From an uncultured Clostridia bacterium (GTDB lineage: Bacteria; Bacillota; Clostridia; Christensenellales; Borkfalkiaceae): a stretch of 64,000 nt of DNA. Position numbers and translations under genes: made by a program. The notes below the pieces were generated by a model. It ran no database searches. It had not been told where the DNA came from and saw nothing but the letters and a program-made list of their open reading frames with translations. This document shows, piece by piece, positions 8,554-64,000 of the stretch (position 1 is its first letter; each line of letters starts with the position of its first letter). Location of the stretch: assembly GCA_904502225.1 (NCBI GenBank), contig CAJGDO010000002.1, positions 1,425 to 65,424 of the forward strand, in the 5' to 3' direction.

Positions 8554-9048
8554 TTAAAAATCTTCAACTTCTTCGCCGTCTTCGTCTTCATCATCTTCGT
8601 CGTCTTCATCATCTTCAAAGTCGGCTTCGTCAATGTCTGGAATATCAAAATCGTCCTCTTCTTCTTCAACGATTTCTTCTTCCTCTTCTTCTTCAAGGTC
8701 ACCTTCTTCTTCGGCTAACTTGTTAAGAGAAAGCATTTCTTCATCTTCCTCTTCTTCCTCTTCTTCAGCGTCTAGATATTCCTTCCAAGAATCGTCATCT
8801 AACTCATCAGAGCGTTCCTTATATTCTTTTTCTTCCAAACACTTATAGCACATCTTTTCACCCGGTCTAATAGGGTTTTGGTGGCAAACTGGGCAAAGGT
8901 CCATCATTTCGCCATCATCTTCATCATCAACAGCAAAAACGAGTTGAGGGCCCTTCTTCAATTCTGCTTTACAAACTGCACAAAACTCTTCGCCCCTTTT
9001 AATGTAATTAAGTTCACATCTTGGGCACTTGATATAATCTCCTGGCAT
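8554..9048 (-). CDS. Double zinc-ribbon protein with an extreme poly-acidic C-terminal tail; hypothetical
   Basis: Two CxxC...CxxC pairs are present (CPRC..CAVC and CPVC..CYKC), followed by about 75 residues that are almost all E/D. An ATG start is preceded by an RBS-like sequence. Confidence 0.7.
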   Translation of the reverse strand: MPGDYIKCPRCELNYIKRGEEFCAVCKAELKKGPQLVFAVDDEDDGEMMDLCPVCHQNPIRPGEKMCYKCLEEKEYKERSDELDDDSWKEYLDAEEEEEEEDEEMLSLNKLAEEEGDLEEEEEEEIVEEEEDDFDIPDIDEADFEDDEDDEDDEDEDGEEVEDF

Positions 9049-9210: not shown

Positions 9211-9969
9211 CTATGCTTTTTCAAGTAGCATTTTATCGGCAATAAGTGCTATAAATTCGCCATTTGTCGGCTTTTCCGCACCAATATATGCACGAACGCC
9301 CAAAATTGAGTTAATGCTTTCAATCCTTCCCCTATTCCAAGCAACTTCTATTGCGTGGCGAATTGCACGCTCAACCTTGCTTGCAGTCGTTTGGTATTTT
9401 TCGCCAATCGATGGATAAAGTTTTTTGGTTATGTTGTTGATAATTTCAGGTTCTTTAATTGCCATAAGCACGCCTTCCCTTAAAAACGAATAGCCTTTTA
9501 TATGTGGCGGGATTCCAACGTTAATAAAAATTCTGCTAACCTTTTCTTCAACGCTCATTTCGTGGAAACTTTCTTTTGCCTCTCTTGGCCTTGTTTCCAC
9601 TTTATCATCCATCTCGTTCAACCTTTCAATCAAAGCCGAAAAGTTAATAGGCTTTGCCATAAAATAATCTGCCCCAGCACTCATAACCTTTGCAACGACT
9701 TCTTCGCTCATAAGAGCACTAACGACAACAATTTTAACGCTTAACTTCATTTGTTTGATTTTGTAAATAACGCTTATGCCATCATACCCCACAAGCACCA
9801 AATCCATAACTAAAATTTTAGGTTTCTTTTCTTCTATCATAGGTAAAGCCGAAATTCCATCGGTGGCACAGCCAATAACGGAATAATCTTCGGTGGTAGA
9901 AAACAAGTTTGCTAGTTCTTCGTTTTGCTCTTTGGTACCCTGCAATAAAAACACCGTTCTTTTCTGCAT
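9211..9969 (-). CDS. spo0A: Sporulation master regulator Spo0A
   Basis: It has a receiver domain plus the Spo0A_C signature (GIPPHIKGYSFLREGVLMAI...ASKVERAIRHAIEVAWNRG...KPTNGEFIALIADK). Confidence 0.95.
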   Translation of the reverse strand: MQKRTVFLLQGTKEQNEELANLFSTTEDYSVIGCATDGISALPMIEEKKPKILVMDLVLVGYDGISVIYKIKQMKLSVKIVVVSALMSEEVVAKVMSAGADYFMAKPINFSALIERLNEMDDKVETRPREAKESFHEMSVEEKVSRIFINVGIPPHIKGYSFLREGVLMAIKEPEIINNITKKLYPSIGEKYQTTASKVERAIRHAIEVAWNRGRIESINSILGVRAYIGAEKPTNGEFIALIADKMLLEKA

Positions 9970-10054
9970 AAAACGCTCCTTTTCTCTTTATATTTGCATT
10001 TTACTATAATATTTTTATTATTGCAAGCGTTTTTTATCATATTTGTAAAATAAA

Positions 10055-10061
10055 TGTCGAA
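10055..10061 (+). promoter_or_regulatory. Spo0A box (TGTCGAA) upstream of spo0A
   Basis: This is an exact 0A-box heptamer 86 nt upstream of the spo0A start. It sits in the loop of a 10-bp inverted repeat (TTGTAAAATA / TATTTTACAA). Confidence 0.6.
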
Positions 10062-10111
10062 TATTTTACAAAATTACATTATTAGTGTTTTTCTAATGTT
10101 TTTCACTGTTT

Positions 10112-10118
10112 TTCGACA
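10112..10118 (-). promoter_or_regulatory. Spo0A box (TGTCGAA on the minus strand) upstream of spo0A
   Basis: The + strand reads TTCGACA, the exact reverse complement of the 0A box. It lies 143 nt upstream of the spo0A start. Confidence 0.55.
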
Positions 10119-10265
10119 TTGTTTTTGGGCATAATAAATTTTGTACAAAATTCGTGCGTTTGTTTACAAAGTTCGGGGAAAGGGCAAAAAAATAAAATTG
10201 CAAAAAGAAAACGCCTTGCGTTTAGGGCGTTCCTATAAGGGAATTTTAATTTAATACAAAAGTGT

Positions 10266-10311
10266 AGCCCACTATACTTCGCTTTAAGGCGAAATATGGT
10301 GGGCTTTTCTT
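10266..10311 (+). terminator. Nested hairpin plus T-run; terminator-like element with a second copy at 60044..60082
   Basis: The outer stem AGCCCAC/GTGGGCT encloses TATACTTCGC-tttaag-GCGAA and is followed by TTTTCTTT. It shares the core CACTATACTTCGC..GCGAA with the second copy. Confidence 0.5.
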
Positions 10312-10364
10312 TATCCACAAAATCTTAAAATAAAAAAGTTGTATTTTTAGCCGTGTGTCTAAAA

Positions 10365-10581
10365 GTGATATTGTTTACGCAGTAAACAGTTTAGCCGAGC
10401 GAAGCGAACGCCAACTGCGTAAGCAGTTATATTTTGGCTATCGCCAAAGTTATATTAAATAAATCCTTAACTCGCCGTAAGGCGAATATAACTGCCGTAA
10501 GGCAATCTCACTCGTCATTAGACGAATATCACAAATCCGTAAGGATTTATTTAATTGCCGAATCCCTTGTAGGGACTCGGC
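10365..10581 (+). repeat. Hairpin-array element, copy A: 8 or more mini-hairpins separated by oriented AT-rich 8-9 nt linkers
   Basis: Linkers are GTGATATT 10365-72, AGTTATATT 10425-33 and 10448-56, AATATAACT 10485-93, AATCTCACT 10504-12 and AATATCAC 10525-32. Hairpins are at 10373-87, 10413-28, 10434-47, 10473-84, 10494-503, 10513-24, 10533-48 and 10557-81. Four of them have GTAA loops on the + strand. Confidence 0.65.
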
Positions 10582-10609: not shown

Positions 10610-12487
10610 TTAGTCGTTAAACAATTCTTCTGCTTTTGTTAAGTATGCTTTCAAGTTGTCAGCGATAAGGTCATCGACAACTTCTCTATTAGAACTGTTT
10701 TTGAACTTTTTGAAGTAATCTTTAACTGCTTGGTATTTCACGTCAAAGCCGAGAGCCTTTGCTTCTTCAGTGTCAACGCAAACCATAATGCCGTCTAACT
10801 CTTTGTATTTTTCAATAACTTCAAGGGCTTTTTTGATATATGCAAGTTTATCTTCTTGAATATTTTTAACCTTGCCTTTTATTGAGCCAAGAGCGTTATA
10901 TTCGTCTAATACTTTGTTATATTCTTCCATAAATTCAGCGTCTTTTTCAGCATCGTCGCCAAGTCCGCCTTCTGGAAGATAAAGTTTGTCAATCTTTTCA
11001 GAAACAATGTCTGCCCTGTCGCTGTCAGCCATTTTGCCGATTTTTTTAGCGTTTTCTTCTTTTAAGAAATACAAATCGGTTTTGCCGTCTTCATCGGTGT
11101 CTTTTTCTTCAACTTCGCTTGCAAGGTCAATATATTCAATATAAGACTTTCCTAAAAGCGAACTATCGCAATAGAAGATATAATCTTTTGCATCATCACC
11201 TTGACCGACTGTTATAATTTTTGGCATATACCAACTTGTTTCAACGCTTGCGTCAGAAACACGAATTTCTTTTTCCAAGGTTTCCAAATTGATTTTAGCA
11301 ATTTCGCTTGATTCGTTGTAATAATATAAATATTCAACCCCGCCTTCGGTTCTAACAAAAAGCAATTTCAAAACGTCATCTTTTGTTAGAATAGGTTTTT
11401 TGGTCATTGCATCTTTTGTCAAAGCCGTTGTTTCATAAACGTTGGTTTCACCCACAACGTAAACTTTATCGAGTGAACCGTTGAAAAGGTTGGTTGACTT
11501 GATATAATCTTTGTTTATAATTTCAGTATTTTTTGTTTTCTCTGACCAATTTGCAGGTTCGCTTGCATCAGCAAGGCTGATTGCATAATACTTGGTCGTT
11601 CCATTTGTGGTTTTGCTATAGAAAAGATATCCGTTATGGATTAAAGAAATTTGGAATTTTTCGTTATACTTTTCTTGGTTGATTTGACCGGTTGCAACCC
11701 TCTTTGGCGTGTTGTTGCCAGCAATAACTGCATAAACTTCGTTATAAGTTGCAACGGTTCTTTCATAACCAGCCTTGTCTGCGTTATCTTTGTCGTATTT
11801 ATCTGTATAAACCGTTGCGGTAAAGTATGCAACCACACCGTTATAATCACTGCTACTAACAAAAGTCAAAGCATCCAAAGTGTATCCGTTTGCCGTTTTG
11901 TCCATTTTGATAACGGTTGACTTGGTGTCTTTTGCCGTGTTGTAGCAATAGAGTGCATTGTTTTCAAAATAATAAATGTAAACGGTGTTGTCAGCCTTAA
12001 CGATTCTATATTCGGTTGAAAGAGCGTTTATGGTAAAGAATTCATCAGTTTTGCCACTGCCATCAAGTTTGGTTCTCATAAACATCATTTTGCTTTTTGA
12101 AACTGTGCCGTAAGAGTTCTTTTCCACGCTTGGTGTGCCGTAATAAGCATAACCGCCATCGATAAACACGCCCATATTATAGTCTGAAGCAACCATAAGT
12201 TTTGGAACAACGATTTCAGAGTTAGACAAGTCGTTTTTATCAGCAACCATCAAAGCACCTTTCAAAGGTTCGCCCATCTTGTTGTTAGAAGTTGAAACGC
12301 CAAGACCGTTTATAAAATAGATATAGTTTTCGGTTTCAGCAATAAACCCGCCGTTGCTCCAAACCTCGCCACTGTTTTTCAAGGTCACCTTGCCAGACCA
12401 ACTACCCTCCGAACAGCCCGAAAGGGTTGCTATACCTAGCACTAAAACTAGCATTGCACAAACTATTTTGGCTAATAATTTTTTCAT
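10610..12487 (-). CDS. Surface lipoprotein with beta-propeller-like YxYY repeats (DUF5050-like); function unknown
   Basis: It has a lipobox (LSGC after a signal peptide) and repeated motifs (NYIYFING, GGYAYYGTP, VYIYYFENNALYCYN, GYLFYSKT). Confidence 0.75.
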   Translation of the reverse strand: MKKLLAKIVCAMLVLVLGIATLSGCSEGSWSGKVTLKNSGEVWSNGGFIAETENYIYFINGLGVSTSNNKMGEPLKGALMVADKNDLSNSEIVVPKLMVASDYNMGVFIDGGYAYYGTPSVEKNSYGTVSKSKMMFMRTKLDGSGKTDEFFTINALSTEYRIVKADNTVYIYYFENNALYCYNTAKDTKSTVIKMDKTANGYTLDALTFVSSSDYNGVVAYFTATVYTDKYDKDNADKAGYERTVATYNEVYAVIAGNNTPKRVATGQINQEKYNEKFQISLIHNGYLFYSKTTNGTTKYYAISLADASEPANWSEKTKNTEIINKDYIKSTNLFNGSLDKVYVVGETNVYETTALTKDAMTKKPILTKDDVLKLLFVRTEGGVEYLYYYNESSEIAKINLETLEKEIRVSDASVETSWYMPKIITVGQGDDAKDYIFYCDSSLLGKSYIEYIDLASEVEEKDTDEDGKTDLYFLKEENAKKIGKMADSDRADIVSEKIDKLYLPEGGLGDDAEKDAEFMEEYNKVLDEYNALGSIKGKVKNIQEDKLAYIKKALEVIEKYKELDGIMVCVDTEEAKALGFDVKYQAVKDYFKKFKNSSNREVVDDLIADNLKAYLTKAEELFND

Positions 12488-16572: not shown

Positions 16573-17402
16573 AAGCCCTCCGACCAACCGATAAGAGAAG
16601 ACACAAGGTCATTTTCGGTCAACACTTCGCTATTTAAGTCTATTCCGTTTTGCTTTAACTCGTCTGCAATCACTGTTGAAACAGGAAGTTCAAGTCCGAG
16701 CGAGCGGATTTTATCTTTTTTAGCAAAAATTTCTTTTGGCGTGCCAGAAAGCACGACTTCGCCCTTGTTTAAAACCAAAACTCTATCCGCATTAACTACT
16801 TCGTCCATATAATGCGTGATGTTTATAATTGTTGTTTTTTGTTCCTTGTTAAGTTTTTTTGCCACTTCCAACACTTCGTTTCTGCCTTGTGGGTCAAGCA
16901 TAGCCGTCGATTCATCAAGCACCAAAACTTTTGGGTTAAGTGCCAAAACGCCAGCGATAGCAATTCTTTGTTTTTGCCCGCCAGAAAGCCTTGATGGGCT
17001 TGATTTTCTAAACTTTTGCATGCCGACAGCCGAAAGTGCAAAGTCTATCCTTTTGCCGATTTCTTGTCTTTTTACCCCCAAATTTTCTGGGCCGAACGCA
17101 ATATCATCTTCAACGATTGAAGCGATAAGTTGGTTGTCAGGGTTTTGGAAAACAACGCCCACCCTTTTTCTAACTTCAAACACCTGCTTTTTATCAGCAC
17201 AGTCAAAGCCATCGACAACAACTTTGCCTTTTTGAGCCTTTATAAGACCGTTGAAAAGTTTTGCAAGCGTGCTTTTGCCACTTCCGTTATGTCCGATAAC
17301 GGCAATATATTCCCCTTCAAAAATTGAAAGGGAAACGTTTTTGATAACGTCTATATTGTTGTCGTAAGAAAAACTGACGTTTTCCAAGTTAATAAGTGGC
17401 AT
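16563..17402 (-). CDS. ecfA1: ECF transporter ATPase EcfA1
   Basis: It has Walker A (GHNGSGKST) and the ABC signature (LSGGQKQR). Confidence 0.9.
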   Translation of the reverse strand: MPLINLENVSFSYDNNIDVIKNVSLSIFEGEYIAVIGHNGSGKSTLAKLFNGLIKAQKGKVVVDGFDCADKKQVFEVRKRVGVVFQNPDNQLIASIVEDDIAFGPENLGVKRQEIGKRIDFALSAVGMQKFRKSSPSRLSGGQKQRIAIAGVLALNPKVLVLDESTAMLDPQGRNEVLEVAKKLNKEQKTTIINITHYMDEVVNADRVLVLNKGEVVLSGTPKEIFAKKDKIRSLGLELPVSTVIADELKQNGIDLNSEVLTENDLVSSLIGWSEGLCK

Positions 17403-17533
17403 TTTTTCATCCTTAACAAAAATTTAATATTGATATTATACCAAAGGTCAAAATTTTTTACAAGCGAAAACAAAAGTTAATCGCCATAAATTTAATATTC
17501 GCCCAAAAACTTAATAAAAATTTTCTTTTTTCG

Positions 17534-17562
17534 TTGACTATTTTTTATTAAGAGTTTATAAT
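17534..17562 (+). promoter_or_regulatory. SigA-type promoter of the PFOR gene
   Basis: TTGACT, a 17-nt spacer, then TATAAT. The PFOR start is 58 nt downstream. Confidence 0.6.
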
Positions 17563-17619
17563 GATACTGTTAATTTAATATAACAAATTATTTTACTATA
17601 ATCTTATGGAGGATTTTTT

Positions 17620-20600
17620 ATGAAAAAATTGACTATCGACGGTAATACCGCCGCCAGCCACGTTGCCTATGCCTTTTCAGAAGTTGCTGCTATTTACCCA
17701 ATAACACCATCTTCACCAATGGCAGAAGTTGCAGATGAATGGTCAGCAACAGGCAGAGAAAACATGTTTGGTCAAAAACTCCGCCTTGCAGAAATGCAAT
17801 CGGAAGCAGGTGCTGCTGGTGCAGTTCACGGCTCACTCGTTGCAGGTGCTTTGACCACAACTTACACCGCAAGCCAAGGCTTGTTGCTCATGATTCCTAA
17901 CATGTACAAAATCGCAGGTGAATTATTGCCAACCGTTTTCCACGTTAGTGCTCGTGCTCTTGCTGCACACTCACTTAACATTTTCGGTGACCATGCTGAC
18001 GTTATGGCTTGCCGTCAAACCGGTTTTGCTATGATTGCTTCTAACTCGGTTCAAGAAGTTATGGACTTGGCGTTAGTTTCACACCTTTCAACCTTAAAAG
18101 CAAAAGTGCCTTTCTTGCACTTCTTTGATGGTTTCAGAACCAGCCACGAAGTTTCTAAAATCGACGTAATTGATTACGAAGATATGAAAGCACTTGTTGA
18201 TATGAAAGATATTGAAGATTTTAGAGCACGTGCTCTTAACCCAGAACACCCTGTTCAAAGAGGTACTGCTCAAAACTCTGACATTTACTTCCAAAACAGA
18301 GAAACTGCTAACAAATACTATTTAGCAACACCTGCTATCGTTCAAGAAATGATGGATAAGGTTAATAAGTTGACAGGTAGAAATTACCACTTATTCGATT
18401 ACGTTGGTGCACCAGATGCTGAAAACGTTGTTGTTTTAATGGGTAGCGGTGCTGACGCTGTTGAAGAAACAATCAACAAGATGAACGCAGAAGGTCATAA
18501 AGTTGGTATGCTTAAAGTTAGACTTTATCGTCCATTTGCTATTGATAGTTTCGTTGACGCTTTACCAAAGACTGTTAAGAAGATTGCTGTTTTAGACAGA
18601 ACTAAAGAAGCAGGCTCTCTTGGTGAACCATTATACCTTGACGTATGCTCTGCATTATTAGAAAAAGGCATGACCGACATTAAGGTTGTTGGTGGTAGAT
18701 ATGGTTTAGGTAGCAAGGAATTCAACCCTTCAATGATTTATTCAGTTTATAAGAACTTGGAACTTGCTGAACCAAAGAACCACTTTACAGTTGGTATCTA
18801 TGATGACTTAACCAACACTTCACTTAACTTTGAAGAAAAATACGATGCTGCACCAAAAGGCACAATTTCTTGTAAGTTCTGGGGTTTAGGCTCTGACGGT
18901 ACTGTTGGTGCTAACAAAAACTCTATTAAGATTATCGGTGACCACACAGACAAATACGTTCAAGGTTATTTCTTCTATGACAGTAAGAAATCAGGCGGTA
19001 TCACCGTTTCACACTTACGTTTTGGTGACACACCTATCCAATCAGCATATTTAATCGACGCTGCTGACTTCGTACAATGCTCTAATCCATCATATATCAC
19101 ACGTTATAATATGACGGGCGACATTAAGAATAACGGTACTTTCTTATTCAACACTTCTGCATTGACAGTTGAAGAATTAGAAAACGTGCTTCCAGCATCT
19201 GTTAAGAGAGATATTGCTAACAAGAACATTAACCTTTACGTTATCGACGCAATTAAGATTGCTGCTGAATTAGGTTTAAGAGGCAGAACAAACACAATTT
19301 TACAATCTGCATTCTTTAAGGTTGCAAACATTATCCCTTACGACCAAGCAGTTGATTATATGAAGAAGATGGCTTATAAGTCATTTGCTAAAAAAGGCGA
19401 TGCTATCGTTCAAATGAACTACAACGCTATTGAAAGTGCTGAAGCAAACCTTGTTAAGATTGAAGTTCCTGCAAGTTGGAAAGATGCAACTGACGGTGCA
19501 CCTATGGCTGAAGTTGCTGACAACAAATATTTTAAGGATATCGTACATCCTATCCTTACTCTTGAAGGCGACAAACTCCCTTCATCAGCATTTAACGCAG
19601 ACGGTACTGTTCCAACAGGTACAACACAATACGAAAAACGTGGTGTTGCCGTTCTCGTTCCAAAGTGGGATGAAACAAAATGTATCCAATGTAATCAATG
19701 TGCTTTCGTTTGCCCACACGCTTGTATCAGACCTGCTGTTATTAAGGAAGGCGAACAAAAACCTATTTCTTTCGTGACCAAACCTATGATTGGTAATAAG
19801 GGTTATGAATATAGAATGCAAGTTTCTGCTCTTGACTGTATGGGTTGTGGCGTTTGTGCTGACATCTGCCCTGCAAAAGAAAAGGCACTTACAATGGTTC
19901 CATTCAATTCTATCGTTGAAACTGAAAAAGTTAACTATGAATTTAGCGAAACTCTTGAAGAAGTTAACGTTTCTGCTTGCCCAGGTTGCAAACCTTCAAC
20001 CGTTAAGGGTAGCCAATTCAACAAACCACTCTTCGAGTTCTCTGGTGCTTGTGCTGGCTGTGGTGAAACACCTTACGTTAAACTTGTCACACAATTATTC
20101 GGTGACAGAATGATAGTTGCAAACGCAACAGGTTGTTCTTCAATCTACGGCGGTTCTGCTCCTACCTGCCCTTACACAAAGAATAAAGAAGGCAAAGGTC
20201 CTGCTTGGGCTAACTCACTCTTTGAAGATAACGCAGAATTCGGTTATGGTATGAACCTTGCTATGTCAACTCGTCGTGCTAAAATCGAAGAAGATATGAG
20301 AAAGGCGTTTGATAGCGTAAACGAAAAGACCAACGCTGCTTTTGCTGCTTGGCTTAACGATAAAGACGATGCTGAAAAATCTAAAGTTGCTGCAGAAATG
20401 GTTAAAGAAGCAATCGCAACTGAAACTGCTGACGGTTTAGATTACATTAAGGCTAACCTTGACTGCTTGGTTAAACCATCAATCTGGATTTTCGGTGGTG
20501 ACGGTTGGGCTTACGATATCGGTTATGGCGGTCTTGACCACGTGCTTGCAAGTGGCGAAAACGTTAACGTTTTAGTTCTTGACACCGAAGTTTACTCTAA

Positions 20601-32006: not shown

Positions 32007-32204
32007 ATGAGCGTTAAACTTAACCCAAATAAAGAAGTTGTTGAAACTATTAAAGAAGGCTTAAAAAGAACGGGTGGATATTGCCCTTGCAGGCTTAACC
32101 GCACCGAAGATTATAAGTGTATGTGCAAAGAGTTTAAAGAGCAAATCGCAGACCCACAGTTTGAAGGGTTTTGCCACTGTATGCTTTATTATAAAGAAAA
32201 ATAA
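32007..32204 (+). CDS. Ferredoxin-thioredoxin reductase catalytic-subunit-like small protein
   Basis: The cysteine pattern CPCR-x9-CMC-x15-CHCMLY resembles the FTR catalytic chain CPC...C.C...CHC motif. It lies directly upstream of trxA. Confidence 0.65.
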   Translation: MSVKLNPNKEVVETIKEGLKRTGGYCPCRLNRTEDYKCMCKEFKEQIADPQFEGFCHCMLYYKEK

Positions 32205-32531: not shown

Positions 32532-32556
32532 GAAAATATAAAAACACTCACGAAGT

Positions 32557-32767
32557 AGTGCGTCAGTAATAGGGATTATTACTGACGCACTAGTTATATT
32601 TGCCTATCGGCAAGTTATATTGCTATCGCAGTGTTATTTTGCTACGCAAAGTTTTATTTTCCCTTTCGGGAAAGTTGTGGCAAATATAATATAACTTTGA
32701 CTTAATGTCAAAATATAACTTTTAGATTTTCTAAAAATATAACTGTTTGCAACGCAAACAATATCAC
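32557..32767 (-). repeat. Hairpin-array element, copy B (inverted paralogue of copy A)
   Basis: The minus strand reads GTGATATT-gtttgcgttgcaaac-AGTTATAT-hp-AGTTATAT-hp-AGTTATATTATATT...hp-AAAATAAAA-hp-AAAATAACA-hp-AATATAACT-hp-AATATAA, followed by a 15-bp-stem hairpin (32557-32591). On the minus strand the loops read GATA, GATA and GAAA. Confidence 0.65.
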
Positions 32768-32881
32768 TTTACTTAAAAATAACTTTATGATATAATTAAC
32801 TTATGAGTGAAAACGCTTAAAGAGAAAAAATAATTTAAAAAACTCGACTATTATTAAAGCCGAGTTTTAATTTTTTTTATA

Positions 32882-40130: not shown

Positions 40131-40181
40131 AAAATTGAAGAGCCTTGCAAGGTTTTGCCTTGCAAGGCTCACGTTCTTTTT

Positions 40182-40523
40182 CAGTCGGTCTATAAGCCGA
40201 GTTCTGTCGTGTACGGTCATTTATCTACGAATAACGTTGCCGTTATCCCCCAGCGATATTTGTTAAACTGTTTTGGCGAAACTCCCTAATAAAACAGTTT
40301 GTCAATCTTGCGTCGGGTGGGGTTTACATTGCACCTTGTGTCGCCACTCGGTCGGTGTGCTCTTACCACGCCTTTTCACCATTACCTAAAAATAGGCAGT
40401 TGTTTTCTGTTGCACTTTCCTTAAAGTCACCTTCACCGGGATTTCTCCGGCACCCTGTTTCTAAAACGCTCGGACTTTCCTCATTGACAGGCTCTCCCTG
40501 TCCCCGCGACCGTATAACCAACT
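40182..40523 (-). ncRNA. rnpB: RNase P RNA (ribozyme component)
   Basis: The minus strand carries the universal GAGGAAAGTCCG motif near the 5' end and ACAGAACTCGGCTTATAG near the 3' end. The termini AGTTGGTTATA / TATAGACCGACT can pair as P1. A terminator hairpin follows at 40141..40168. The ends are approximate (+/-10 nt). Confidence 0.9.
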
Positions 40524-40967
40524 CAAAAAGTAAAAGTATTATATATTAATTTATCAGTTTTGTCAACTAAAAATAAAAAAGACCGAGTTAATCCATTATT
40601 TTACTAATTTTTATTAGGTAATTATTACTTAATTAAAATTCTAATAACTTCTTTAAGCCAGTCTTTTTCGTTTTTTCAAGGTTTAGTTTTAAGATTTTTT
40701 ATAAATCGTCAGCATCTTGAACAGGTTTTTCATACTTATCAAAAGCGTTTACACCTGTATATGAACCTTGCGTATCAAAATTGCTTATAAATGATTTCTT
40801 ACTTGCAATTTTTCGCATCGTTTTGCTTCTTGCTATTCGTTTTACTTTTCTTATTATCTCTCATAATCTTCCCCCTTGATAATATGTTGTGTAGAAAACA
40901 AAAAGATATACATTTAAAAACAAAAAAACGACAAAAATTTTGCCGTTTTATTTTTTTGTTTAATAAA

Positions 40968-59814: not shown

Positions 59815-59901
59815 GCCGCTGTGGTGAAATTGGCAGACGCGCTGGACTCAAAATCCAGTGGTAGCGATACCGTGCCGGTTCAAGTCCGGCCAGCGGCACC
59901 A
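59815..59901 (+). tRNA. tRNA-Leu (anticodon CAA), CCA encoded
   Basis: I folded the cloverleaf by hand. The acceptor is GCCGCTG/CAGCGGC, the anticodon stem is CTGGA/TCCAG with loop CTCAAAA, the variable arm is long, and the T arm is CCGG-TTCAAGT-CCGG followed by CCA. Confidence 0.95.
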
Positions 59902-61269: not shown

Positions 61270-64000
61270 ATGAAAAAAAGATTTTTCACTCTTATTCTCA
61301 CTCTTACCGCTATGCTTATGTGCATATTCGGTTTAACGGCTTGTGGCGATAAAGAAGTTTCGTTCAAACTTAATTTCGTTGTAGATAATGAAATTTATGC
61401 AACGATTGACACGAGTGGAGACGAAGTTATAGCACTTCCCGAAAATCCTACGAAAGAAACACATACTTTCGACGGTTGGTTTTGGGATAAAGACGTATGG
61501 AATAAACCGTTCACGGCAAATTCGCTTTTAGACGCACCTTTATCAAGCGATATGTCGGTTTATGCTAAATTTATCCTTAATACCATTGATGGTGTAACGT
61601 TTGAAGATGTAGAAACGACTTATGACGGCACGGAAAAAACGCTCGCCGTTAGCAATCTTCCCAACGGTGCGAGCGTTACCTATGACAAGGCAAATACATA
61701 TACTAACGCGGGCGAATATACCGTTACGGCAACTATAAGTCAAGAAAACCACGAAGATTTGCAGTTGACGGCAACGCTTAAAATCAATAAGGCTGCTTAT
61801 GATATGAGTGGTGTTGTCTTTGTGGACAAAGCCGTGACCTATAACGGCGAAAGTCATTCTATCACGGCAACGAATTTGCCCAACGGGGTGACTGTTGAAT
61901 ACACGGGCAATAATCAAACCAACGCCGACGAATATACGATAACAGCAACGTTCACGGGCGATAGCGCAAACTACGAGCCTATCGCGGACAAAACAGCAAC
62001 GCTTACTATTAATAAAGCAAGCGTATCTAAACCCACTCAAGATTCCACTTCGTTTGTATATAACGGTAACGAGCAAACGTATTTCCTTGCAGAAAATAGC
62101 CTCTATACGATTAGTGGAAATAAACAAACCAATGCAGGAAATCATACCGTAACGGTTTCCTTGAAAGATAAAAACAATTATCAATGGAGCGATGAAACTG
62201 CCACCGACCTTTCTTACTCTTTTGATATAGCAAAAGCAACCTACGATATGAGTGCGGTTGTTTTTGCGGATAAAACCGTAACCTATAATGGGGAAATTCA
62301 TTCCGTTATCGTAACGAATATTCCTAATGGCGTTAGCGTTGATTATGAAAATAACAATAAAATGAACGCCGATACTTATACCGTTATCGCAAAATTCACT
62401 GACACAACGGGAAACTATGAAAATCCTGCCGACAAAACCGCAACGCTTATTATCAATAAGGCTACCTATGATATGAGTGGTGTTGCCTTTGCAGATAAAA
62501 CCGTAACATACAATGGCAATGCGTACTCTATCGAAGCGCAAAACGTTCCGAGCGGACTTTCAGTTTCTTATACGGGTAACGATAAAACCAACGTCGATGC
62601 TTATACCGTTACGGCTACCTTTACCGATACGACGGGCAATTATGAAAATCCCGAGAATATGACGGCAACGTTGGTTATCAACAAAGCCACCATAACGGGA
62701 ATTACTTTTACAGATAAAACTGTAACCTACGATACAAAAACGCACGCGCTTGCGATTGACGGCAATCTTCCCGCTTGCGTAAAAGTGACTTATACAAATA
62801 ATGATAAAGTAAACGCAAACACGTACACAGTAACCGCTTCGTTTGCAGATACAAGCGGAAATTATATTGTACCAAATGATATGAGCGCAAAACTCATTAT
62901 TAACAAGGCAACTGTTTCGGGTATCTCTTTTGAAGATAAAACGTTCACGTATAACGGAGAAAAACGTAGCCTTGCCATTAGCGGAACGCTTCCCGAAGAA
63001 GTGACCGTTTCTTACGTCAATAACGGCAAGACTAATGCTAATACCTATAACGTAACGGCGACCTTTACTTGTGAAACGGAAAACTACGTCGTACCCGAAG
63101 ATATGACGGCGGTTCTTACGATCAAAAAAGCTATGTACGATATGAGCGAGGTTACCTTTGAAAACAAAACGGTGACCTACGACGGCAAAATCCACTCTCT
63201 TGCCGTTAGTGATAATCTGCCCGATGGCGTAACCGTAACATATGAAAACAACGATAAGATAAGTGCAAATCAATACATTGTAATCGCTATCTTTACGGGC
63301 GATTCTATCAACTATTACGCAATAGACGATATGCAAGCAATGCTTACTATCAATAAGGCAACTTATGATATGAGCAAGACACAATTCGTTGGCGGTAGAT
63401 TTACCTACGACGGAACGCCGAAGTCTATCTACGTTACGGGCAACCTTCCCGACGGCGTAACCGTAAACTATACGAACAACGGCAAAATTAATGCGAATAC
63501 GTATACTGTAACTGCAACCTTTACGGGCGATACGGAAAACTATAATAAACTTCCCGATTGGCCAGCTTCGCTTATCATTGATAAAGCAACTTACGATATG
63601 AGTGGCGTTTCGTTCAAAAATCAAACGTTTACTTATGATACAACAGCGAAGAACGCTTTAGTTACGGGAACTCTTCCCAGCGGCGTGGAAGTATCTTACG
63701 TTGGTAACGGCAAAACGGACGTTGGAACTTATAACGTAACGGCAAAGTTCAACGGCGATAGCAATAACTATCATTTGATTGAAGATATGACGGTAACTCT
63801 TAAAATCAATCAAGCCGTGCCGTATATCAAAGAAGTATCCTGCAATCAATCCTTAAACTTGTATTCAGCGGTAGAACTTATTGCCGATACCGAAGTGGCA
63901 GGTACGATTTCGCTTGATAACGGTCAAACGCTTGCGCTTGGTTATAAAACGTATTCTTGGACGTTTGTTCCCGAAGATACGCATAATTACACCAATGCAA
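61270..64000 (+). CDS. Giant surface lipoprotein with an InlB-B-type repeat and at least 10 tandem MBG-like domains. It is 3'-truncated by the window edge.
   Basis: I translated by hand from the ATG at 61270 (GGAGGA RBS). The frame stays open for 910 codons to the window end. It has a lipobox (LTAC), an FDGWFWDKDVWNKPF motif, and repeated units (INKATYDMSGVxFxDKTVTYNGxxHS...NLPxGVxVxY.N..K.NA.TYTVTA.FTGD..NY). It is absent from the ORF track because it has no stop codon in the window. Confidence 0.85.
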   Translation, partial: MKKRFFTLILTLTAMLMCIFGLTACGDKEVSFKLNFVVDNEIYATIDTSGDEVIALPENPTKETHTFDGWFWDKDVWNKPFTANSLLDAPLSSDMSVYAKFILNTIDGVTFEDVETTYDGTEKTLAVSNLPNGASVTYDKANTYTNAGEYTVTATISQENHEDLQLTATLKINKAAYDMSGVVFVDKAVTYNGESHSITATNLPNGVTVEYTGNNQTNADEYTITATFTGDSANYEPIADKTATLTINKASVSKPTQDSTSFVYNGNEQTYFLAENSLYTISGNKQTNAGNHTVTVSLKDKNNYQWSDETATDLSYSFDIAKATYDMSAVVFADKTVTYNGEIHSVIVTNIPNGVSVDYENNNKMNADTYTVIAKFTDTTGNYENPADKTATLIINKATYDMSGVAFADKTVTYNGNAYSIEAQNVPSGLSVSYTGNDKTNVDAYTVTATFTDTTGNYENPENMTATLVINKATITGITFTDKTVTYDTKTHALAIDGNLPACVKVTYTNNDKVNANTYTVTASFADTSGNYIVPNDMSAKLIINKATVSGISFEDKTFTYNGEKRSLAISGTLPEEVTVSYVNNGKTNANTYNVTATFTCETENYVVPEDMTAVLTIKKAMYDMSEVTFENKTVTYDGKIHSLAVSDNLPDGVTVTYENNDKISANQYIVIAIFTGDSINYYAIDDMQAMLTINKATYDMSKTQFVGGRFTYDGTPKSIYVTGNLPDGVTVNYTNNGKINANTYTVTATFTGDTENYNKLPDWPASLIIDKATYDMSGVSFKNQTFTYDTTAKNALVTGTLPSGVEVSYVGNGKTDVGTYNVTAKFNGDSNNYHLIEDMTVTLKINQAVPYIKEVSCNQSLNLYSAVELIADTEVAGTISLDNGQTLALGYKTYSWTFVPEDTHNYTNA
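61555..64000 (+). repeat. In-frame tandem repeats of 222-228 nt (74-76 aa MBG-like modules), at least 10 copies
   Basis: The I-N/K/D-K-A boundary motif recurs at 61783, ~62005, ~62225, 62452, 62677, 62899, 63121, 63349, 63577 and 63805. Confidence 0.85.

Follow-up and report, generated by a model that had tools for sequence, protein, structure and literature searches.

Gut-1 (Rfam RF01706) was described as a 77-nt motif from human-gut metagenomes, in which three or four short hairpins alternate with a GUGAAAU-type linker; it was rated a likely non-coding RNA (ncRNA), and its host was not known (Weinberg et al. 2010, PMC2864571). Our literature search found nothing on Gut-1 after 2010. Here we analyze a 64,000-nt stretch of contig CAJGDO010000002.1 from an uncultured Clostridia bacterium (hereafter the window), in which an initial annotation had singled out an array of mini-hairpins with AT-rich linkers in the spacer beside spo0A. 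This array, copy A, is a member of the known but uncharacterized Gut-1 family, in its full two-armed form and with a variant linker, GTKATAT rather than GTGAAAT. Positions 10481-10557 of the minus strand match the Gut-1 model with 51.9 bits (E = 2.3e-07), where the gathering score is 50. The array therefore does belong to a named RNA family, which the annotation had not recognized, and an Rfam match is what the annotation itself held would count against novelty. Aligned to the model, copy A contributes three short hairpins with the linkers GUGAUAU, GUGAGAU, and GUUAUAU, all of the GUGAAAU type; the exact GTGAAAT form is present at a related locus, L019. The model spans only one half of the full element, and 11 further Gut-1 matches in relatives, which score 54-74 bits, likewise each cover one half only. 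A second, inverted array is already visible in the unannotated flanks of the published alignment, one row of which is the same locus as our L331 (PMC2864571).

To catalogue the family, a pattern scan was run on one genome per species and returned 120 loci, real and chance matches together. About 60 relatives with a common architecture were found in metagenome-assembled genomes (MAGs) of gut and rumen Clostridia, in keeping with the expectation that homologues exist beyond the two copies in the window. The hosts are human- and ruminant-gut MAGs that carry the labels Acutalibacteraceae, Eubacteriales, Ruminococcus, Oscillospiraceae, Christensenellaceae, or Clostridia. A phage origin was considered and rejected: a scan of viral contigs gave almost exclusively chance matches to AT-rich or tandem-repeat sequence, the real ones (L234 and L331) lie in tRNA-flanked, host-like contexts, and the single match in a phage database is an unverified fecal contig with tRNA-Arg, the element, and a four-helix-bundle gene. 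A plasmid scan gave no match to the element.

The module follows one order: an upstream gene, a long perfect hairpin (H0) that ends one base ahead of the first linker, four units of GTKATAT linker plus hairpin, a centre of two linkers, and four units of ATATMAC linker plus hairpin. Depending on whether H0 is included, this amounts to approximately 170-250 bp. Linker orientation in the canonical layout is ++++----, with an asymmetric linker spacing of approximately 21, 16, 22 / 36 / 24, 24, 22 nt on the Gut-1 strand, and every spacer is a hairpin; left-only, truncated, and extended forms also occur. Left units read A-GTKATAT-T followed by a short perfect palindrome. The centre, GGCGAATATAAT-ATCAC, comprises two abutting inverted linkers. 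Its left part repeats, in reverse-complement form, the first linker together with the 5' arm of hairpin 1. These partners change jointly across lineages (tcgcc/ggcga, ttgcc/ggcaa, ttgttcc/ggaacaa, and AAATAAATCC/GGATTTATTT), and a 13-nt long-range complement noted in copy A is this same family feature. Perfect hairpins make up 150 of the 203 distinct family spacers, compared with 0.16% of random spacers of the same composition. The element is real, non-random, and conserved. The annotated selection on hairpin structure is borne out by stems that vary while their pairing is kept, and the linker is indeed the conserved part that switches orientation. Copy A conforms to this design, its 10337-10581 interval consisting of perfect short hairpins and 7-9 nt linkers whose orientation flips midway. 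A second and more canonical copy (copy B) lies at 32556-32768 on the plus strand, behind a thioredoxin gene. On either strand, the two copies fold better than shuffles (z of approximately -8), and eight of the nine occurrences of AGTTATATT in the window (1.16 expected) are inside these copies, at approximately 10.4 kb and 32.6 kb.

In every lineage the linkers of the two arrays are mutually reverse-complementary, which is what would be seen if the element were a stand-alone ncRNA: one transcript whose linkers would pair into the successive helices of a rod, each step bearing a projecting hairpin, as the initial annotation had proposed. The Rfam match and the strong predicted folding of either strand also favour such a rod, but reverse-complementary linkers are equally expected from one motif used in two orientations. 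The variable base of the linker, T or G on the left and A or C on the right, provides a test in 15 complete elements. It is complementary in 28 of 60 nested pairs, against 22.3 +/- 3.6 under shuffling (p = 0.10), and no alternative register beats the nested one. L1 is T in 15/15 elements and its partner R4 is C in 14/15, leaving the outermost pair mismatched in 14 of the 15; three elements carry TTTT on the left against CCCC on the right. The rod thus lacks covariation support, and the arrays behave as two independently homogenizing tandem arrays. Left-only forms likewise speak against it, as do the near lack of wobble pairs (~1%) and the lack of a promoter ahead of the element. No discrete transcript of approximately 215 nt is indicated either, since tRNA-linked members feature a terminator-like hairpin of 13-16 perfect base pairs and a T-run in front of the arrays. 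The folded rod is the least supported reading, and we regard it as very improbable.

The make-up of stems and loops raises the question of whether the Gut-1 family acts as RNA at all. Across the family, stem pairs comprise 672 Watson-Crick pairs, 7 G-T, 9 A-C, and 15 others, with no strand asymmetry, such that wobble pairs, at approximately 1%, are on a par with A-C mismatches. Functional RNA helices normally tolerate G-U far better than A-C. H0 was tried as an internal control for G-U pairs and proved uninformative, being itself nearly perfect and, in one class, flipping orientation. On the ATATMAC strand, 38 of 80 triloops are GNA and 43 of 62 tetraloops are GNNA, while the complementary loops are never seen; the closing pair is C-G in 135/150 hairpins, and loop position 3 has no purine preference. 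Motifs of the form d(cGNAg) and d(cGNNAg), including d(GCGAAGC), are very stable DNA mini-hairpins. The loop pattern is a signature of DNA mini-hairpins rather than of GNRA RNA loops. Loop polarity flips along with the linker across the family, and the confinement of GTAA loops to one strand, listed in the initial annotation, is peculiar to copy A.

These loops would be GNRA-like on reverse-strand RNA, which would suit a further possibility, that a small RNA of an estimated 110-130 nt, antisense to Gut-1, is transcribed from a promoter in the centre (reverse-strand TTGAAA-16/17-TATTAT or TTGACx-17-TATATT) and ends at H0. A promoter-like site is found at the same place in 23 of 35 members, copy B matching it at 11/12 positions, and the A-run of H0 would supply the U-run. 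The site is, however, made of generic unit features (ATAT-T-G..., and two abutting AT-rich linkers), it is missing from copy A, from L321, from most left-only arrays, and from the GTGAAGT lineage, where the centre reads ACTTCACTTCAC, and the reverse strand has no excess of G-U. The GTGAAGT lineage and the left-only arrays rule out a centre promoter as a general family feature, and the occurrence of left-only arrays with no promoter from which they could be read in reverse is a further sign of a DNA-level role; as an account of the element this small RNA also seems scarcely probable.

The element occupies a fixed genomic position behind genes. In 33 of 38 elements, the neighbouring upstream feature runs in the same direction, and in 13 of the 38 it is a tRNA or transfer-messenger RNA (tmRNA) gene 32-46 nt before the first linker, with H0 alone in between; a fourteenth tRNA lies 515 nt away. 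The element follows tmRNA at L030 and the last tRNA of a 23S-5S-tRNA operon at L031, and it is also found behind genes for EF-Ts, CysRS, and thioredoxin. This placement behind stable-RNA and housekeeping genes could suggest a bidirectional terminator or insulator array, in which hairpins of the GTKATAT strand, each followed by the U-rich AGUUAUAUU, back up forward termination from highly expressed genes on the left and stop opposite transcription on the right. In favour of this, H0 bears both an A-run and a T-run, and the terminator scan picks out H0 with L1, as well as individual units, as resembling terminators. Very weak terminators would nevertheless result from stems of 3-6 bp with G-U-K-A-U-A-U-U behind them, the variant linkers GTGAAGT and GTGAAAT are not U-rich, and the repeats of L071 have no hairpins. 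Moreover, the downstream gene is usually co-directional, which leaves the right array nothing to stop, and neither the loop polarity nor the gene association described below is explained. We consider a terminator array decidedly improbable.

At seven loci (L002, L027, L028, L073, L084, L093, and L100) a co-directional PF05635 gene of 116-118 codons lies approximately 20-60 nt after the element. Look-ups of close homologs added array-linked genes at L321, L331, and L332, and in 13 of the 13 such genes seen the array stands directly before the PF05635 gene. The seven loci differ in their neighbouring genes, which are unrelated to one another (EF-Ts, CysRS, an Na/H exchanger, and others), and in these surroundings we found no other conserved gene after the element and no conserved second gene behind the PF05635 gene. 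PF05635 ('23S rRNA-intervening sequence protein') is a four-helix-bundle family that we take to include Avd of diversity-generating retroelements (DGRs). We know of no role for its stand-alone Avd/S23p members. Among the protein lineages seen, the linker varies with lineage, GTKATAT giving way to variants in the loci of more distant proteins: L019, with the order tRNA, H0, arrays, gene, carries GTGAAAT/ATTTCAC linkers, the original Gut-1 consensus; L040 and L332, the latter from a very common gut species, carry GTGAAG(T)/ACTTCAC; and L071 carries hairpin-less TTCACT/AGTGAAT repeats. Most of the gene-linked copies have their own promoter after the last linker. It is possible, if doubtful, that arrays and PF05635 protein form one previously unrecognized two-part system. 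An Avd/S23p-like oligomer would recognize a 7-nt motif, specific to the lineage, that is displayed between mini-hairpins extruded from DNA (or RNA), and the system as a whole would establish itself downstream of stable-RNA genes and spread by copying to further gene ends. Were this so, the stand-alone 'four helix bundle'/23S-IVS proteins, a very large family, would gain their first cellular function and cognate nucleic-acid ligand, and an Rfam 'RNA' family would be re-assigned to a protein-bound DNA element. Should the link between protein and array hold, the roles of four-helix-bundle proteins outside DGRs and the association of S23p with stable RNA become directly testable. The PF05635 link is the part of this work most worth following up.

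Considered together, these data lead us to favour, tentatively, a reading in which copy A is a gene-less and somewhat decayed copy of a dispersed intergenic module that acts in DNA, its linkers being putative protein-recognition sites and its hairpins structural spacers. Recognition would be sequence-specific and would take place at the 7-nt linkers, the most plausible partner being the four-helix-bundle protein that the module itself encodes. The palindromes, free in sequence, would extrude as very stable mini-hairpins that space and present the linkers, most likely in supercoil-extruded or single-stranded DNA rather than in a folded RNA rod, and the two arrays would be independent tandem arrays in inverted orientation rather than strands of one helix. 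An intact module comprises H0 abutting the 3' end of the upstream gene, an array of about four units, the centre, an inverted array of about four units, and a promoter and ribosome-binding site with the PF05635 gene; the whole would be copied to new sites behind genes, with the protein gene often lost later, as in both copies of the window. The protein-binding array already suggested in the initial annotation is a reasonable role.

Several observations weigh against this DNA-level reading. The PF05635 gene is kept in only about seven of about 60 GTKATAT arrays, covariation of linker and protein is also expected under plain shared ancestry, and to our knowledge four-helix-bundle proteins of this family are not sequence-specific binders. 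A protein that binds double-stranded DNA would not need hairpin spacers. Copy A violates the loop-polarity rule, and wobble pairs could also be scarce because template switching 'corrects' short quasi-palindromes. That element and upstream gene so often share one orientation would also suit an RNA that acts in read-through transcripts, both copies in the window occupy a 3'-untranslated position between a stop codon and the first T-tract terminator, and at L321 and L332 the start codon of the four-helix-bundle gene follows the last linker so closely that we see no space for a promoter, which would make these arrays part of an mRNA leader. These last three observations also support a cis-acting RNA, co-transcribed with the upstream stable-RNA or protein gene by read-through of H0 and serving as a leader or processing platform for the four-helix-bundle mRNA or as a stabilizer in the 3'-untranslated region. 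Two published observations point the same way: Gut-1 was rated a likely RNA (PMC2864571), and RNase III cuts a selfish, S23p-carrying intervening sequence (IVS) out of rRNA precursors at inverted repeats (PMC4990558), which shows that elements with genes of this family can operate at the RNA level. Against a cis-acting RNA stand the 13-16 bp hairpin and T-run before the arrays of tRNA-linked members, the separate promoter after the last linker in most gene-linked copies, G-U pairs no commoner than A-C on either strand, the absence of linker-linker covariation, and left-array loops that would read UNC or UNNC in the forward RNA, neither being a known stable RNA loop. We judge this role unlikely by itself; the RNA-level roles together weigh about as much as the DNA reading that we favour.

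The module appears to spread as a unit. The same H0 is found behind different tRNAs, and the same promoter, ribosome-binding site, and ATGAG follow the last linker ahead of different genes, from which we infer that H0, arrays, and downstream expression signals travel together. At L008, L031, L050, and L043, approximately 55 nt past the last linker, the same promoter, 5' leader, Shine-Dalgarno sequence, and ATGAG(T/C) precede different open reading frames (ORFs). Whatever lies behind the element seems to receive from it a ready-made set of expression signals, or the remnant of a four-helix-bundle gene start. L041 contains two near-identical copies of the element, and L049 contains a tandem duplication. 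In the latter (positions 960-1700) a block of approximately 410 bp is duplicated, each copy starting with a tRNA- or tmRNA-like 3' end (...tcgtctccacca); the H0 that follows differs between the copies, and the element and flank after it are identical, an arrangement reminiscent of the att-site duplications left by integrative elements. One class of H0 (GAGGCGCAC..GTAA..GTGCGCCTC; L108, L110, L112, L071, L007, L081, and L101) features a conserved A-C mismatch on the Gut-1 strand that equates to G-U on the other strand. An H0 of this class is flipped in its entirety at L113, which suggests inversion at the palindrome. A composite transposon was rejected, as the only split arrays (L010) flank a Mur ligase gene and other housekeeping genes, and neither transposase nor cargo was seen among the flanking genes scanned.

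The coordinates of copy A largely agree with the initial annotation, every string listed there having been located within 1 nt of its given position. The linkers are GTGATATT (10365-72), AGTTATATT (10425-33 and 10448-56), AATATAACT (10485-93), AATCTCACT (10504-12), and AATATCAC (10525-32); the four hairpins with GTAA loops are present as described, as are the long-range complements of AAATAAATCCTTA (10457-69) to TAAGGATTTATTT (10540-52) and of AGCCGAG (10393-99) to CTCGGCT, the latter at 10576-82 instead of 10575-81. On the right, the terminal hairpin does end at 10581; on the left, the annotated border was too narrow and omitted a further unit at 10337-10363 (AGTTGTATT plus a hairpin). The canonical direction of this irregular copy is the minus strand. 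Its terminal long hairpin (10557-10581; gccgagtccctacaagggattcggc on the canonical minus strand) occupies the position homologous to the family H0, directly after a 625-aa gene (stop at 10610), and has no T-tract. The left, or Gut-1, array (10485-10556, minus strand), delimited by the Rfam match and by parsing, comprises hairpin 1 (10534-10549), linker (10525-10532), hairpin (10513-10524), linker (10504-10512), hairpin (10494-10503), and linker (10485-10493). There follow, at 10457-10484 on the same strand, the last left hairpin (10470-10484) and the centre (10457-10469), which is complementary to the start of the left array (10540-10552), just as the family centre GGCGAATATAAT is to L1 and the 5' arm of hairpin 1. 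The right array (10337-10456, minus strand) has plus-strand linkers AGTTATATT at 10448-56 and 10425-33, AGTGATATT at 10364-72, and a degenerate AGTTGTATT at 10337-45; its hairpins are at 10434-47, 10413-28, 10373-87, and 10346-63, and an irregular insert (10388-10412) contains GCGAAGC.

Downstream of copy A, the minus-strand interval 10209-10319 holds a DnaA-box-like site of perfect sequence (TTATCCACA, 10311-19) and a long hairpin. It also includes, within 10209-10231 (stem 10209-10223 in the terminator scan), the T-tract terminator that comes first in the transcription unit of the 625-aa gene. The hairpin adjoining the DnaA box is 38 nt long (GCCCAC...GTGGGC, 10267-10304) and matches no Rfam family at threshold. 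Two other MAGs, L087 and L097, have the block 10262-10319 as well, again behind elements but at unrelated loci. The 625-aa gene itself (10610-12487, minus strand), which adjoins copy A, has no Pfam match and is syntenic with spo0A in several relatives at 30-40% identity. Five relatives that keep this gene order have a spacer with an ordinary terminator only, and copy A is missing from all 80 related spo0A loci examined; the comparison with the five plain spacers indicates that copy A is a lineage-specific gain. Filled and empty spacers are too diverged in sequence to read a target-site duplication, and look-ups of the exact Spo0A and thioredoxin proteins of the window found neither on record. 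Spo0A-box-like sequences (TGTCGAA/TTCGACA) occur at 9970-10130, upstream of spo0A (9211-9969, minus strand), and similar boxes are found in the spo0A spacers of relatives.

Copy B, on the plus strand, begins with H0 TAGTGCGTCAGTAATAGGGATTATTACTGACGCACTA (32556-32592), a hairpin that also heads elements at unrelated loci in L093, L097, L087, L114, and L117. Left array and centre (32592-32690) comprise linkers at 32592-600 and 32613-21, degenerate linkers at 32631-39 and 32650-58, the hairpins between them, and the centre AGTTGTGGCAAATATAAT (32673-90). The right array (32688-32768) has three copies of AATATAACT (at 32688, 32712, and 32736) followed by AATATCACT (32760-68), with hairpins at 32697-711, 32721-35, and 32745-59. 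An outward promoter-like site, TTTACT-17-TATAAT (32768-96, plus strand), is followed on the same strand by an 18-nt remnant of a PF05635 gene start, ATGAGTGAAAACGCTTAA (32803-20), and by a terminator hairpin (32843-64). Copy B thus retains the promoter and first codons of the PF05635 gene, which copy A has lost. A small ORF resembling ferredoxin-thioredoxin reductase (32007-32204) lies just upstream of the thioredoxin gene. A candidate third copy at 26.4 kb was rejected, the cluster of near-matches there being ordinary AT-rich sequence.

Elsewhere in the window, gene orientation turns from minus to plus at approximately 17.5 kb (17400-17620), and GC and AT skews change sign at approximately 16-24 kb. 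No DnaA-box cluster was found, and the switch is probably a divergent operon boundary rather than oriC. A check for an oriC between the two copies, which would have separated the orientations of replication and transcription, was uninformative, the GC-skew flip at approximately 17-20 kb coinciding with the switch in gene orientation. The window also contains a class A RNase P RNA (40177-40525, minus strand), a tRNA (59815-59898, plus strand), and a long coding region of diverged repeats of approximately 225 bp (61700-63820; spacings of 216-234 and multiples) that looks like a repeat-domain surface protein. An ORF at 8554-9048 (minus strand) has a weak, below-threshold double-zinc-ribbon match over N-terminal residues 8-70. 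Codon repeats of the GAA/GAC type, in a long run that overlaps this ORF, would encode an acidic low-complexity stretch.

Among known systems, repetitive extragenic palindromic (REP) and bacterial interspersed mosaic elements are multi-copy palindromic units with conserved linker motifs, placed after genes in variable unit number, for which both DNA- and mRNA-level roles have been proposed. The element shares their extragenic, multi-copy palindromic units, conserved linkers, post-gene placement, and variable unit number. In REP elements, however, the palindrome is conserved and orientation alternates with each unit, whereas here the palindromes all differ (203 distinct spacer sequences, with stems differing within and between elements), the linker is conserved, and orientation changes once in canonical elements. 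No RAYT-type transposase gene was found among the few flanking genes scanned. BOX elements of Streptococcus pneumoniae are modular intergenic repeats (A-Bn-C) with variable internal units and strong predicted secondary structure. The element is likewise modular, intergenic, variable in unit number, and strongly folded in prediction, but BOX modules are conserved in sequence, lack the design of constant linkers and variable hairpins, and have no associated protein gene.

The annotated exclusion of both classical REP elements and clustered regularly interspaced short palindromic repeats (CRISPR) stands; with regard to the latter, the repeat is 7-9 nt, the 9-18 nt spacers are palindromic, the blocks are two and inverted, and the only match to a CRISPR model is a chance one (16.5 bits). 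Integron attC sites run RYYYAAC ... GTTRRRY, whereas the element runs convergently from GTT... to ...AAC and its array units are direct repeats. The intrinsic-terminator form, a GC-rich stem with a T-run, is seen in tRNA-linked H0 but not in the H0 of copy A, and mini-hairpins are only occasionally flagged as terminators. A type III toxin-antitoxin system of the ToxIN kind would have ToxN/AbiQ downstream and purely tandem repeats, where the module has PF05635 and inverted arrays.

Two further systems involve S23p or Avd proteins. The 23S rRNA IVS is a selfish, sporadically distributed element bounded by inverted repeats inside a stable-RNA gene (PMC4990558), and we take the S23p ORF that it carries to belong to the same protein family as PF05635. 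Common to both are the S23p ORF, a small and sporadic element, stable-RNA units, and inverted repeats. Unlike the module, which stands after the 3' end of tRNA, tmRNA, rRNA, or protein genes with both inverted arrays upstream of the ORF, the IVS is inserted within 23S rRNA helices, and its inverted repeats flank the ORF as one long stem. DGR targets provide a precedent for a role in DNA: they have hairpins or cruciforms whose GC stems vary in sequence and whose GRNA loop is specific to one strand, and these form when the DNA is supercoiled. The loop, it was suggested, might contact Brt, Avd, the RNA containing the template repeat (TR), or other parts of the target (PMC3240598). The likeness is in a DNA stem of free sequence, a strand-specific G..A loop, function in supercoiled DNA (on the DGR side), and an Avd four-helix-bundle protein in the system (PMC3240598). 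The DGR hairpin is single, has a 7-10 bp stem beside a variable repeat (VR), and needs a reverse transcriptase (RT) and TR; stems of the element are 3-8 bp and are arrayed with conserved linkers. Near the elements the scanned flanking genes are housekeeping genes with only an Avd-like gene present, and no RT, TR, or VR was seen, although no systematic search for these was made.

The closest comparison remains Gut-1 itself. The left array of the element is Gut-1, and copy A scores above the gathering threshold; but what was published as a stand-alone ncRNA of 77 nt is here one half of a module with H0, a second inverted array, and often a PF05635 gene. To this Rfam family, an orphan since 2010, our analysis adds its hosts among uncultured gut and rumen Clostridia, its complete two-armed architecture, a fixed position behind tRNA, tmRNA, rRNA, and other genes, and a recurrent protein partner of the Avd/S23p family.

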